A stretch of DNA of 64,000 nucleotides from Firmicutes bacterium CAG:884 (GTDB lineage Bacteria; Bacillota_I; Bacilli_A; RF39; UBA660): contig HF993347.1 of assembly GCA_000433875.1 (NCBI GenBank), positions 22,450 to 86,449 on the forward strand, written 5' to 3'. The notes beneath the pieces are model-generated. The model saw only the letters and a list, made by a program, of their open reading frames with translations. It made no database searches and was not told the DNA's origin. Positions within the stretch are counted from its first letter, which is position 1. Every line of letters begins with the position of its first letter. This document shows, piece by piece, positions 1 to 5,194 of the stretch. A program made the translations under genes and the position numbers.

Positions 1-516
<516 letters not shown>

Positions 517-1173
517 TTATTCACTAACTTTAACCATTGCGGTTCTTATTACTTTATCTTTTAATAGATAACCTTTTTGTAATACTTCAACAACCATTCC
601 CGGTTTAACACCTTCTACTTTTTCAACCATAACAGCATTATGATATGTAGGATCAAATGGCTTATTGTTTCCATCTATTGCTTTAACTCCATACTTTTCA
701 AGAGCATTAGTTAAATGACAATATATTAATTTAAAACCTTCTAAAAACTTAGATAGTTCATCTGTTAAATTAGTATCATCCAATTTAATAGCTCTTTCAA
801 AGTTATCAAGTGTAGGTAAAATTTCTTCAACTAAATCTTCATTACAATATTTTAACAGTTTAGAAACTTCCTCATCTTTTCGTTTACGATAATTAATAGT
901 TTCTGCTTTTTCTTTTAAAATATTTTCTTCTGCTTCTTTTAACTTTCCTTCAAGTTCAGAAACAGTTTTATTTAGTTCATTAATTTCTTTTACTACATCT
1001 TCACAAGAACATTCTTCACACTCGCAATCATCACAATTACATTCATCACAAGAACATTCTTTGCCTTCACAGCATTTGCAGTTTTCTTCTTCACAAGTGC
1101 ATTCTTTTCCTTCGTTGCATCCACATTCGCATTCAGGAGAACATTTACAAACTTTTTTTTCTTTTTTCTTCAT
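517..1173 (-). CDS. grpE: Nucleotide exchange factor GrpE with an unusual ~55 aa Cys-rich N-terminal extension
   Basis: 218 aa. The C-terminal two-thirds has the GrpE coiled-coil and beta-domain pattern (…LLRTLAEFENYRKR-like 'INYRKRKDEE', 'VGVKPGMVVEVLQKGY'). Sits between hrcA and dnaK. Confidence 0.85.
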   Translation of the reverse strand: MKKKEKKVCKCSPECECGCNEGKECTCEEENCKCCEGKECSCDECNCDDCECEECSCEDVVKEINELNKTVSELEGKLKEAEENILKEKAETINYRKRKDEEVSKLLKYCNEDLVEEILPTLDNFERAIKLDDTNLTDELSKFLEGFKLIYCHLTNALEKYGVKAIDGNNKPFDPTYHNAVMVEKVEGVKPGMVVEVLQKGYLLKDKVIRTAMVKVSE

Positions 1174-2305: not shown

Positions 2306-2429
2306 TCAAGATTTTTCTTGATTAATTCCTTTTTCAATTTCCTTTATCTCATCTAATGATAGTTCAGTTACTTTAGAAATAGTCTCGTAAGATATTTTTT
2401 CTTCAATCATACGCTTTACCATTTGCATA
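2306..2429 (-). CDS. Small (40 aa) putative HTH protein, unannotated short ORF
   Basis: ATG at 2429 with an upstream RBS-like AAGGAAAAAG. Product MQMVKRMIEEKISYETISKVTELSLDEIKEIEKGINQEKS resembles a lone helix-turn-helix. Too short to verify. Confidence 0.2.
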
Positions 2430-2488
2430 TCTTTTTCCTTAACAATTTTTAATGTTGATTCCTCTATTTTTTTTCTTTCCTTCCTTGC

Positions 2489-2674
2489 TCACCTTTTCTC
2501 AGCATTTGCAATTTTCTTTTCCATATACTTTCTACAATATTCAGTTGTTCCTAAATCAATTACAATTCCACTATCTTCTATCATTTTATATACACTCCTT
2601 ATACATTCAATTCTTGTTTTATCATCCACCAGTTTTTTTAGGATTTTATCCATCTCTTCAAAACACCATTTCAA
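2489..2674 (-). CDS. Hypothetical small protein (61 aa)
   Basis: ORF only; no recognisable motif. Confidence 0.3.
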   Translation of the reverse strand: MKWCFEEMDKILKKLVDDKTRIECIRSVYKMIEDSGIVIDLGTTEYCRKYMEKKIANAEKR

Positions 2675-2702
2675 GCACCAAACAAAAAATCCATAACATT
2701 TG

Positions 2703-3011
2703 TTATGAATTTAAACTATTGATTTCTTTATTAAGAGCATTTTTCTTTTCAATTATCTTATCTTTTGGAGCCTCTTCAAGTTTATACCAACCACGTCTAA
2801 ACATATCCTCAAAAACACATCGTTGCATGTCAGCATAAACATCAAACATTTCCTTATATTTCTTATATAAAATCTCATTACTAGCTTCCGTTAAAACAAC
2901 CGCATAATTTTTAACAAGTTCCTTCAAACTAGATAATAAACTATTCATATAATCTTTATCATTTAAAGCCTTACCACTAGGAACTAAAACCTCTGTATTT
3001 TCAATTTTCAT
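2703..3011 (-). CDS. Spore coat protein F (CotF)-like protein
   Basis: The LNDKDYMNSLLSSLKELVKNYAVVLTEASNEILYKKY pattern matches the Coat_F domain (LNDKD…EASN motif). Overlaps the 3' end of a paralogous partner ORF. Confidence 0.5.
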   Translation of the reverse strand: MKIENTEVLVPSGKALNDKDYMNSLLSSLKELVKNYAVVLTEASNEILYKKYKEMFDVYADMQRCVFEDMFRRGWYKLEEAPKDKIIEKKNALNKEINSLNS

Positions 3012-3271
3012 ATTTGACCTCCAAGTATATTTAAAATCTCATTCATAATACCATAAAAAGTATCAGATGCCTTATTCAAAATAATTTTCACCTCAGGATC
3101 CTCTACATTATTTGAAGCATTAAAACTACTCTTATAGACACCATAATTCCAACTAAACATATCACTTAAATAATCCAAATCCTTACCACTTATAATATTC
3201 GGTACATTTTCATATTTCATATATATCCCTCCAATAATATAATGAATAAAAAATAAAATTTTATACATCAT
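3008..3271 (-). CDS. CotF-like spore coat protein paralog
   Basis: 87 aa, 4-nt overlap with the downstream CotF-like gene. Similar LSDMFSW…NASNNVEDPEV pattern; CotF-family genes commonly occur as pairs. Confidence 0.4.
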   Translation of the reverse strand: MMYKILFFIHYIIGGIYMKYENVPNIISGKDLDYLSDMFSWNYGVYKSSFNASNNVEDPEVKIILNKASDTFYGIMNEILNILGGQI

Positions 3272-3277
3272 ATTAGT

Positions 3278-3568
3278 ATGATATACATTATAATTTTTAT
3301 TTTTAAATTAATAGAAAATACACTAAGTACAATTAGAATAATAGTAATAAATCAAGGAAAAAAAATATTAGGCGCGATTTTGCAAGGTATAGTTACACTA
3401 GTATGGGCCATATCCGCCGGCCTCACAATTATCGATTTCAAAAAAGATTATCTTAAAATATTTGTATTCTGTTTAGGAGCCTTTATAGGATCATTACTAG
3501 GATCATATATTGAAGAAAAAGCAAGAAAAAAAGAGATTATTTTACAATCTCATTTCCATCAAACTTAA
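3278..3568 (+). CDS. Small integral membrane protein (3 predicted TM helices)
   Basis: 96 aa, hydrophobic segments (IIVINQGKKILGAILQGIVTLVWAISAGLTII…). Confidence 0.4.
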   Translation: MIYIIIFIFKLIENTLSTIRIIVINQGKKILGAILQGIVTLVWAISAGLTIIDFKKDYLKIFVFCLGAFIGSLLGSYIEEKARKKEIILQSHFHQT

Positions 3569-4130
3569 TATCTAAAAACTTCTTACTAGAAAGAAAATCA
3601 CACATATGCACAAACTTTTGATATTTATTATGCGGTCTTTCTAAAACCTCATTACCATTATAATCCTTTGTCCATTCACCCATATGAGTCTTAATAGTAG
3701 TATCAATAAACTCAAGTTCCTTATCACTAAAACCAATCTTGTCATTATTATCAATAATATATTTACCAATAATTATAGGATGCTCAAATACAGTATATTC
3801 TTGCTTAACAAGACCAGACTTTAAACCATCGTGAACAAGTAAACATAAGATCATAAGATCTTTTTCTTTTAAAGAAAAAGCATCACCAATTACTGAATTA
3901 TGATTCAAAAGCTCATTTGCAATATTAACAGCAGCCTTCGTATGTCTAACTAAACCACCCTCTCCTTGTGAAAAAGAAGGATGGTATTTTCCCGTAGACG
4001 AAGCCGGAACCTCAAAAAAATAATCCGGAAGCATATTAATAACCTTAATAGCCTTTTCTCTAATATCATCTTCTTTAATATAACCTAATTCTGTTTTAAA
4101 TATATCAGCTTTCATTTTAACCTCCATCAC
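3537..4130 (-). CDS. HD-domain phosphohydrolase
   Basis: 197 aa with H…HD metal-binding signature (KYHPS…LVRHTKAAV…LLVHDGLK). Confidence 0.7.
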   Translation of the reverse strand: MMEVKMKADIFKTELGYIKEDDIREKAIKVINMLPDYFFEVPASSTGKYHPSFSQGEGGLVRHTKAAVNIANELLNHNSVIGDAFSLKEKDLMILCLLVHDGLKSGLVKQEYTVFEHPIIIGKYIIDNNDKIGFSDKELEFIDTTIKTHMGEWTKDYNGNEVLERPHNKYQKFVHMCDFLSSKKFLDIKFDGNEIVK

Positions 4131-5194
4131 ACAAAATTAATTAGTATTTCATTTGATAAATAAATATAATCTTTATTTATATAAATGAAGCCATTTTTAT
4201 CTATTAATTTACCACTTTTTATTAATTCTTGAATATCAAATACATCTTCTATATTCTTATGATATTTTAAATAAAACCTTTCCTTATTAACGCCTTCTAT
4301 TTTTCTTAAACCAAAAATCATTTCATTTTGCATATTTTCAAGCACACTAACAAAATAAGATTCCTTCACATATTTATGATTAATATAATCAATTATATTC
4401 CTAGTATTATCATACCTTGTATTATCTACAAAACCACTCGCACCAAGACCAAATCCATAATAATTGTCATTATTCCAATAAACTAAATTATGCTTAGCCT
4501 CATACCCATAATAACTAAAATTAGAAACCTCATAATGATGATAATTAGATAATTTATTTTGAATCAACTTATACATTTCATAATCTAAATCCTCATCAAT
4601 ATTCTTTTCATTTCTAAGTCTAGTATGTTCTTCAATAATCAAAGAATATGTTGAAATATGTTTAATACCTAAATCAATTAAAAAGTCTATATCATTTTCT
4701 AAATCTTTTAAACTTTCTCCCTTTAAAGCATACATTAAATCAACATTAACATTATCATAATACTTTAAAGCAAGCTTAATTCTATCCTCATAATCACTCA
4801 AATATTTGCGTCCCAAATAATCTAAACTTTCCTTTTTAGTAGTCTCAAGACCAATACTAAGTCTATTAACTTTAGTAGTTTTCAAAAAATCAAGCAATTC
4901 CCTATTTATATCTTCTATATTACATTCAAATGTAAACTCTTCTATATCTATTTTAAAAATATCAATTATTTTAAATAATCTTTTAAGTTCATCAATACTC
5001 AAACAAGAAGGAGTACCCCCACCAATATAAATAGTTTTAATTATATCACCTTTATATCTAGATAATACCTCTTCTTCTAAACTATCAAGATAAGGATTAA
5101 CCCATTTTTTAATATAAAACAATTTACAAAAATCACAATAAGAACAAATACTTGAGCAAAAAGGGATATGAATATATACAGAATTATTCATCAT
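4127..5194 (-). CDS. hemW: Radical SAM heme chaperone HemW (coproporphyrinogen III oxidase-like)
   Basis: N-terminal [14 protein letters not shown], a CxxxCxxC radical-SAM motif. 355 aa. Conserved position between lepA and hrcA as in Bacillus. Confidence 0.8.

Follow-up and report, generated by a model that had tools for sequence, protein, structure and literature searches.

The stretch analysed here (the window) comprises 64,000 nucleotides of contig HF993347.1 from Firmicutes bacterium CAG:884, and near its left end lies a grpE gene whose product begins with a Cys-rich tail reminiscent of a metallothionein. The gene order is hrcA-grpE-dnaK, with grpE starting 2 nt past the hrcA stop codon. 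Sequence score, predicted fold and a heat-shock context shared with dnaK all identify the protein as GrpE. It reaches 161.3 bits with Pfam GrpE (PF01025, cutoff 25.8) in a match that spans aa 62–218 only, passes the NCBIfam GrpE equivalog NF010738 with 155.5 bits against a cutoff of 137, and is modelled by AlphaFold2 (AF2) with a helix over residues 57–130, a second over residues 139–160 and a beta domain of six strands (predicted local distance difference test score, pLDDT, of 67–89 per 10-residue block). Because two CIRCE (controlling inverted repeat of chaperone expression) operators overlap the TTGACA/TATAAT promoter upstream of hrcA, the grpE operon of the window is a classical HrcA/CIRCE heat-shock operon; the pattern search for the operator found these 2 matches against an expectation of 0.00. 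The first 59 residues of the protein, which precede the GrpE domain, read MKKKEKKVCKCSPECECGCNEGKECTCEEENCKCCEGKECSCDECNCDDCECEECSCED.

Eighteen Cys lie within residues 9–57 of this tail, which is 18 of 59 aa (31%), and two further Cys in the GrpE core bring the whole protein to 20. The initial annotation had reported 20 Cys in an N-terminal extension of ~50 aa; the Cys-rich extension is there, and the number given for it is that of the entire protein. Across the long open reading frames (ORFs) of the window, which has a GC content of 27.3%, Cys accounts for 1.6% of residues, and at this background the binomial probability of finding at least 18 Cys in 59 residues is ~1e-18. Together with the selection analysis described below, this rules out chance or a compositional artefact of a 27% GC genome. 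The cryptic DNA repeat that had been noticed in the same annotation was recovered by Tandem Repeats Finder as a 15-nt period in 4.3 copies (998–1061), corresponding to a C-x-C-acidic-acidic pentapeptide, and a 21-nt period in 3.1 copies (1046–1113).

The tail is translated and a misplaced start is excluded, because the ribosome-binding site (RBS) and the start codon are sound, with GAGAGG standing 5 nt ahead of the grpE ATG (1173), and because the next in-frame ATG, GTG or TTG after this start, a TTG, comes only around residue 130, within the GrpE domain. The 2-nt junction between hrcA and grpE is identical in the five orthologous loci in which hrcA is called in full (L081, L082, L083, L086 and L087). 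The condition under which the initial annotation would have given up the extension, absence from all close relatives and a misplaced start codon, does not hold, as the tail is found in all 120 closest homologues listed and no internal start bypasses it. The features of the locus are collected in Table 1.

Table 1. Features of the grpE locus in the window, with their positions, strand and the basis on which each was assigned.
Feature	Position	Strand	Basis
grpE coding sequence, 218 aa, stop codon included	517–1173	minus	ORF list, Pfam GrpE, NCBIfam
Metallothionein-like N-terminal tail, aa 1–59, 18 Cys	997–1173	minus	sequence reading, composition
Conserved core module, aa 9–27, C-K-C-SPE-C-E-C-G-C-NEGKE-C-T-C, 7 Cys	1093–1149	minus	alignments, hhalign
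Variable C-x-C repeat region, aa 28–57, 11 Cys	1003–1092	minus	Tandem Repeats Finder, homologue tails
E58-D-V-V-K-E-I64, hydrophobic patch flanked by acidic residues	982–1002	minus	sequence reading
Shine-Dalgarno GAGAGG of grpE, within the last hrcA codons	1179–1184	minus	sequence reading
hrcA, heat-shock repressor	1176–2174	minus	Pfam HrcA (176 bits) and HrcA DNA-binding domain
dnaK, 5′ part, running off the window	1–498 (start at 498)	minus	sequence reading
Promoter upstream of hrcA, TTGACA / TATAAT, overlapped by the CIRCE operators	2271–2276 / 2249–2254	minus	
Two CIRCE operators	2218–2244 and 2264–2290	overlapping promoter read on minus strand	pattern search

A homologue search of 5.8e9 proteins returned 5356 matches, and the tails of the best 120 were inspected. 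A Cys-rich tail (9–24 Cys) is present in 120 of these 120, down to ~55% identity, and the homologues share the core consensus C-x-C-x3-C-x-C-G-C-x-E-G-x2-C-x-C, followed by a variable number of C-x-C units. Within the core, C9, C11, C15, C17, C25 and C27 are kept in at least 90% of the aligned sequences. The number of C-x-C units differs among the orthologues, indels in their tails fall in the repeat units, and more distant relatives have a Lys-rich spacer after these units. On average over 92 distinct tails, Cys makes up 29% of residues, Glu 21%, Asp 10% and Lys 10%, aromatic residues are at ≤0.1% and hydrophobics nearly nil, and the Cys are spaced as C-x-C in 51% of cases, as C-x3-C in 19% and as C-x2-C in 14%.

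Purifying selection acts on the tail. Eight orthologues aligned by codon give a ratio of non-synonymous to synonymous divergence (dN/dS) of ~0.04–0.5 in the tail (mostly 0.1–0.3), compared with ~0.03–0.36 in the core. Both TGT and TGC are found at 19 of the 21 Cys columns, and the Cys are therefore held at the protein level while the DNA beneath them turns over. One pair of genes stands apart: between the window (517–1173) and L084 (866–1522) the tail DNA is nearly identical, with 1 synonymous difference. This mosaic divergence suggests recombination within grpE between strains, because the synonymous divergence (dS) of 0.04 in the tail contrasts with 0.48 in the core.

The core also occurs outside GrpE, as it was recovered with a profile of the tail from 1.84e9 representative proteins and from the 5.8e9 proteins. 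The former search gave 23 matches at E ≤ 0.001, a number that is no gauge of family size, as the composition correction penalises the profile. Among the 5.8e9 proteins the profile matched free-standing proteins of 42–69 aa with E-values down to 5e-7 (for example P0152, on a 123-kb contig, and P0148), which usually consist of two modules and begin like the GrpE tails, MEEKKCNC..CTCGCQEGKECTC. This 'CNCGPDCTCGCQEGKECTC' family is characterised by the core C-x-C-x3-C-x-C-G-C-x-[ED]-G-x2-C-x-C and a MEEKK-type N-terminus, both of which are present in the GrpE tail, and hhalign aligns the GrpE tails to it with 98.9% probability (E 1.5e-17, 55% identity over 42 columns); by this sequence comparison the GrpE tail is homologous to the free-standing small-protein family. 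Where free-standing genes were looked up by exact protein they lie on contigs of 24–29% GC, like the window. The free-standing proteins have no Pfam or NCBIfam model and their database names go no further than 'hypothetical protein'.

Beyond these small proteins, the module is attached to a variety of hosts. It is C-terminal on HisRS, DeoC aldolase and an HD-domain protein, as confirmed by Pfam, C-terminal on small 4Fe-4S ferredoxins and on a DUF1904-like protein, and inserted mid-protein in DUF1292 proteins; the profile search also found copies after signal peptides. Loci and proteins with such fusions and insertions are L109 2777–4219, L107, L113 528–1370, L119 3–578, P0146, P0155, P0163 and others, and P0161 and P0172. 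Since it sits on several unrelated housekeeping proteins, a portable and putatively metal-sequestering domain is favoured over a GrpE-specific switch. A near-identical module, CNCGPDCTCGCQEGKECTC, occurs in membrane proteins on high-GC contigs (L154 612–1142 and L136, GC 0.59–0.62; L120, GC 0.53), so that its range extends beyond the low-GC clade. On L173 (79–1575), a single 1.6-kb metagenome contig that could be a fission/fusion intermediate or a chimera, hrcA is followed by a free-standing 69-aa metallothionein (MT)-like ORF (1091–1300), which is identical to the GrpE tail of L001/L148 over its first 41 residues, and then by a DUF3781 gene, with no grpE on the contig. This arrangement may be a hint that it is important in itself to have the module under heat-shock control.

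Neither Pfam (queried with three tails) nor NCBIfam nor the PDB sequences gave a match to the tail even at E ≤ 10; P0122, a three-module fusion, reaches Pfam Metallothio_5 with 31 bits and no single matched stretch. Literature queries on Cys-rich GrpE, on the motif strings and on a CsoR-linked Firmicute metallothionein found no description within a coverage that leaves subscription journals mostly outside, so that novelty is not proven. The module is apparently an undescribed, portable bacterial metallothionein-like module.

To characterise the surroundings of the module, metagenome contigs were scanned, which gave 80 further loci besides the earlier ones, and 127 de-duplicated neighbour proteins were put through Pfam. 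With HrcA, HSP70 and MreB_Mbl from the GrpE-fused loci and the generic ABC-transporter and helix-turn-helix families set aside, the top recurrent families are CsoR/RcnR (PF02583, n = 4) and Cation_efflux and ZT_dimer (n = 3 each). A CsoR-family gene of 96–106 aa lies directly upstream of the module, on the same strand and at ~11 nt, in six loci (L104, L106, L118, L125, L162 and L170), and all six proteins retain the Cys...His-x3-Cys ligand set. Such a Cys-His-Cys set defines the Cu(I)-type CsoR (PMC11672702). A CDF gene adjoins the free-standing module in L092, L093, L094, L144 and L125 (by phmmer for those beyond L092), and the order is ZIP, CDF, MT on one strand in L092 and CsoR-like, MT-like, CDF in L125. 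The pairing of a CsoR-family gene with an MT-like gene is, by analogy, the gene logic of a metal-inducible sequestering protein. Two other roles for a small Cys-rich protein were considered and set aside: a precursor of a ribosomally synthesised and post-translationally modified peptide (RiPP) of the SCIFF (six Cys in forty-five residues) type, since no radical SAM family is among the 25 most recurrent of 96 neighbour families, and Fe-S binding, which is unlikely as the C-x-C spacing is atypical and the ferredoxin fusions retain a separate 4Fe-4S motif.

In the AF2 model of full-length GrpE the tail has no confident fold (pLDDT 36–60), and a free-standing homologue modelled with its family alignment is likewise unstructured (pLDDT 58). 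Such low confidence in a metal-free model would be expected of an apo-thionein and is no evidence of metal binding. AF2 and sequence reading place the tail at the tip of the paired stalk helices, where the two 18-Cys tails of the dimer meet. Directly after the Cys block comes EDVVKEI, the only acid-flanked hydrophobic patch in the tail, which is kept as ED[IV]V[NK]EI in close relatives. The tails of Escherichia coli GrpE bind the DnaK substrate groove via 17-IIM-19, which is hydrophobic and flanked by acidic residues, and this binding depends on the integrity of the stalk (PMC12915176); EDVVKEI is a candidate equivalent of this DnaK-binding motif. Zinc sites of the kinds known from other chaperones were rejected for the tail, as the number and pattern of its Cys differ from the Hsp33-type zinc redox switch, with no Pfam match, and the C-x-x-C-x-G-x-G repeats of the DnaJ-type zinc finger are absent. 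The DnaJ of relatives retains its own PF00684 domain.

The tail was then compared across the 80 nearest species-level genomes, of which the 76 with a readable tail were scored. These genomes are uncultured gut 'Bacilli/Tenericutes/Mollicutes' metagenome-assembled genomes from humans, rabbits, ruminants and mice, that of L076 being a closed 1.26-Mb chromosome, and the clade would appear to be an RF39-like lineage with reduced genomes. Tails are of the Cys type in 46 of the 76, mixed His and Cys in 8 (for example 22–24 His with 6–8 Cys), His-only in 2 (21–23 His, zero Cys), neither in 19 and borderline in 1. The repeated exchange of Cys and His as ligands favours metal binding over pure thiol redox sensing. 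His-rich GrpE tails (13–24 His) were seen in L076, L080, L025, L040, L074, L078, L063, L033 and L034, with no Cys at all in those of L076 and L080, and they resemble nickel/zinc-binding tails such as those of Hpn, HypB and SlyD.

Together this leads us to propose, with a probability of roughly 0.65, that the first 59 residues of GrpE are a metal-thiolate (metallothionein-type) sequestering domain under HrcA/CIRCE control. The tail is translated, under purifying selection, conserved in the clade and homologous to small proteins encoded next to CsoR, CDF and ZIP genes. Judged from its sequence by the operational marks of metallothioneins, namely Cys content, few aromatics and C-x-C, C-x-x-C and C-C motifs, it would qualify as one, and a genetic link to metal homeostasis is found for the free-standing homologues only. 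The name 'metallothionein-like' chosen in the initial annotation is borne out by 29% Cys, by C-x-C as the main spacing and by the homology to small free-standing proteins in metal-gene clusters.

We infer metal binding, the identity of the metal, a feedback loop and effects on nucleotide exchange or substrate release as follows. A conserved core of 19 residues, seven of them Cys, and the C-x-C-acidic-acidic units behind it, whose number grows and shrinks, would bind thiophilic metals, most likely Cu(I), Zn(II) or Cd(II); in sister species, the His-rich variants might bind Ni, Co or Zn. As part of GrpE, the tail is expressed from the HrcA/CIRCE heat-shock operon, and control of the HrcA type follows how much misfolded protein is present. 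Because this control senses misfolding and soft metals cause aggregation, metal stress would induce the sink, with metal-induced misfolding raising the output of the metal-sequestering domain in a feedback, and the sink would be placed on the very DnaK machine that deals with clients damaged by metal. In anaerobic cells, proteins aggregate under Cu(I) and other soft metals, and DnaK and other chaperones counteract this (PMC9040851, PMC10699150).

Several observations weigh against a metal-sequestering tail. No curated metallothionein family (Pfam Metallothio_*, SmtA PF02069) matches it at E ≤ 10, and queries of the 64-kb window for ZIP, CDF and CsoR found no metal genes. The GrpE fusion stands under heat-shock control, not metal control. 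The metal signals conflict, as the Cys-His-Cys set of CsoR and the C-x-C spacing point to Cu(I) and the ZIP and CDF genes to Zn or another divalent metal, and several of the free-standing gene contexts are uninformative. Finally, about a quarter of the related species are without any Cys- or His-rich tail, and its function is therefore dispensable.

If the Cys cluster, with or without Zn, served instead to sense oxidants in a strict anaerobe, as in Hsp33, Mge1 and GrpEL2, oxidation would form disulfides and release metal, GrpE would be turned down and DnaK would hold its clients. Thiolate clusters are intrinsically oxidant-sensitive, and the paired stalk helices carry the tail at their tip, beside the only hydrophobic patch. 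GrpE-like factors are, moreover, already redox sensors, via Mge1 and Cys87 of GrpEL2 (PMC12987570). However, the His-rich tails of sister species cannot form disulfides, eighteen Cys in variable copy number far exceed what a switch requires, and the homologous free-standing module lies in metal-sensor and transporter clusters, not redox clusters, and is also fused to the unrelated HisRS, DeoC and ferredoxin; we regard a redox switch as unlikely. About as doubtful is a combined scheme, in which GrpE, by virtue of its tail, would be an exchange factor gated by metal and redox state and would in addition remove metal from clients. While DnaK holds metal-misfolded clients, Cu(I) or Zn would pass from them to two thiolate clusters at the stalk tip. 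Whether these clusters are occupied or oxidised would decide how far the V-V-x-x-I pseudo-substrate can reach the DnaK groove and how stable the thermosensor coiled coil is. Metal status would thus feed directly into the Hsp70 cycle, and a gut clade with reduced genomes would have swapped Cys and His ligands repeatedly to match its metal environment.

Somewhat less probable again is that the tail acts as a regulator and not a sink, such that Cu or Zn status tunes substrate release by DnaK, with metal in the two tails of the dimer clamping the N-terminal end of the thermosensor coiled coil or hiding the V-V-x-x-I motif. This would suit the mode of action of the E. coli tails, which reach the DnaK groove via an acid-flanked hydrophobic motif and rely on an intact stalk (PMC12915176), as well as the place of EDVVKEI, the sole such motif, right behind the Cys block, and the fact that GrpE is by far the commonest host of the module (5356 matches; all 120 listed carry the tail). 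Yet in more distant relatives a Lys-rich spacer is present and the EDVV motif has been lost, the module is promiscuous across host proteins, it stands alone directly after hrcA in L173, where the contig holds no grpE, and the quarter or so of related species that lack such a tail argue against a switch specific to GrpE.

A functionless low-complexity expansion, in which slippage of TGT/GAA-type codon repeats produced a tolerated disordered spacer, is disfavoured and in our view very improbable. The degenerate 15-nt and 21-nt tandem repeats, the variation of copy number among orthologues, the low AF2 confidence in the tail and the tail-less quarter of the related species would all fit such slippage, but purifying selection with Cys retained through synonymous codon turnover would not, nor would a 19-residue core that is kept, including its non-Cys G, E-G and T, to 55% overall identity and across unrelated hosts. 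For an annotation artefact, in which the true start is internal and the Cys-rich stretch an untranslated leader, we found no support and see next to no chance, given that in-frame ATG, GTG and TTG are absent between residue 1 and approximately residue 130, that a consensus RBS is suitably spaced from the start, that hrcA and grpE are likewise 2 nt apart in five orthologous loci and that there is codon-level selection on the tail.

A metal-sequestering tail on a chaperone would have parallels. HspA, the GroES of Helicobacter pylori, and SlyD of E. coli carry, like the window GrpE, a lineage-specific low-complexity terminal extension rich in metal ligands. These His/Cys-rich tails serve metal sequestration and delivery, not folding as such (PMC3856676, PMC8779794). 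HspA, whose His/Cys-rich tail is C-terminal and binds nickel, is the nearest functional analogue; it differs from the window tail in its host (GroES versus GrpE), in the terminus that is extended (C versus N) and in its ligands (His versus mostly Cys in C-x-C arrays), and the GrpE tail further differs in coming from a portable module that is also free-standing and in that no context of nickel enzymes was seen. In L076 and L080, the His-rich tails of GrpE look very similar to those of the HspA/SlyD type. A natural fusion of a housekeeping or redox protein to an MT domain is known from the TrxA thioredoxin-metallothionein chimera of Runella aurantiaca, whose MT domain was shown to bind heavy metals and to raise tolerance (PMC13578184), and the GrpE tail is like it in this respect, whereas partner and phylum differ.

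SmtA and BmtA are bacterial cytoplasmic Zn-sequestering proteins, and SmtA uses His ligands and has a zinc-finger-like fold. With this cyanobacterial/pseudomonad family (PF02069) the module shares C-x-C motifs and a link to zinc homeostasis, as it follows ZIP and CDF in L092, but the window tail gives no Pfam match at E ≤ 10, is without His and aromatics and is strongly acidic. The bacterial cytoplasmic proteins that sequester Cu or Zn also include MymT and Csp, MymT being a small Cys-rich Cu(I) metallothionein of Mycobacterium tuberculosis under RicR, of the CsoR family (PMC11672702). The CsoR-family gene logic of MymT is alike in six loci of the free-standing homologues, where the pairing is read from adjacency; no sequence similarity was detected between MymT and the window tail, and MymT is not known fused to a chaperone.

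Within the GrpE family, the canonical tail of E. coli (residues 1–33) is like that of the window in its position, its acidity, its disorder when free and its motif (EEIIMD versus EDVVKEI) (PMC12915176), and the window GrpE is unlike it in that ~50 Cys-rich residues precede the patch and the tail holds 18 potential metal ligands, a feature of no GrpE described so far. A 2025 review of GrpE-like factors makes no mention of zinc or metal (PMC12987570). Hsp33, yeast Mge1 and human GrpEL2 couple stress to chaperones through Cys, Met or Zn chemistry, and two of these three are GrpE homologues; they use one to four defined residues, in contrast to the 18-Cys repeat array of the window tail with its relatives in metal operons.

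Some features of the wider neighbourhood were recorded alongside. In the window, small ORFs occupy 2306–3271 (minus strand) between hrcA and an HD-domain-like ORF (3537–4130) that precedes hrcA, and between this ORF and lepA lies 4127–5194, which we take, by reading alone, to be a radical SAM gene, presumably in a setting close to the usual lepA-hemW-hrcA arrangement. An Rfam scan of the whole window gave zero matches. Close relatives have the order hrcA-grpE-dnaK-pepF-dnaJ (two loci, L082 and L083), with an M3 oligoendopeptidase gene between dnaK and dnaJ (L082 8543–10342), a type IV secretion system (T4SS) coupling-protein gene after dnaJ and an RVT_1 reverse-transcriptase gene just upstream of hrcA (L082 3827–4894; L083 2075–2686). 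In the orthologous locus L087 a gene upstream of hrcA (27–341) has a Pfam match to Coat_F (spore coat protein F), a surprise in a Mollicutes-like lineage with reduced genomes. The only Cys-patterned stretch of the window besides the grpE tail is a 688-aa open frame at 11560–13623 (minus strand), with an apparent membrane-spanning hydrophobic stretch at residues ~75–95 and ~20 repeats of the type D-x-D-G-D-G-K-C-D-L-N-C-D-T. These repeats are Asp-rich and Ca-binding-like, have a Cys pair each and are reminiscent of thrombospondin type-3 repeats.

The disordered N-terminal tail of GrpE was only recently shown to act directly on the substrate site of DnaK, and in a clade of abundant uncultured gut bacteria most of this tail is replaced by an array of metal ligands, mostly of the Cys type and in some species of the His type. 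A further outcome is a family of very small, metallothionein-like proteins of bacteria that had no annotation and often form a pair with a CsoR-type repressor; as a portable module, the family is also found on GrpE, HisRS, DeoC, DUF1292 proteins and ferredoxins. Should the tail bind metal, it would connect metal stress and the Hsp70 machine in a natural and physical way, in keeping with recent work in which Cu(I) and other soft metals killed anaerobic cells by making proteins aggregate.

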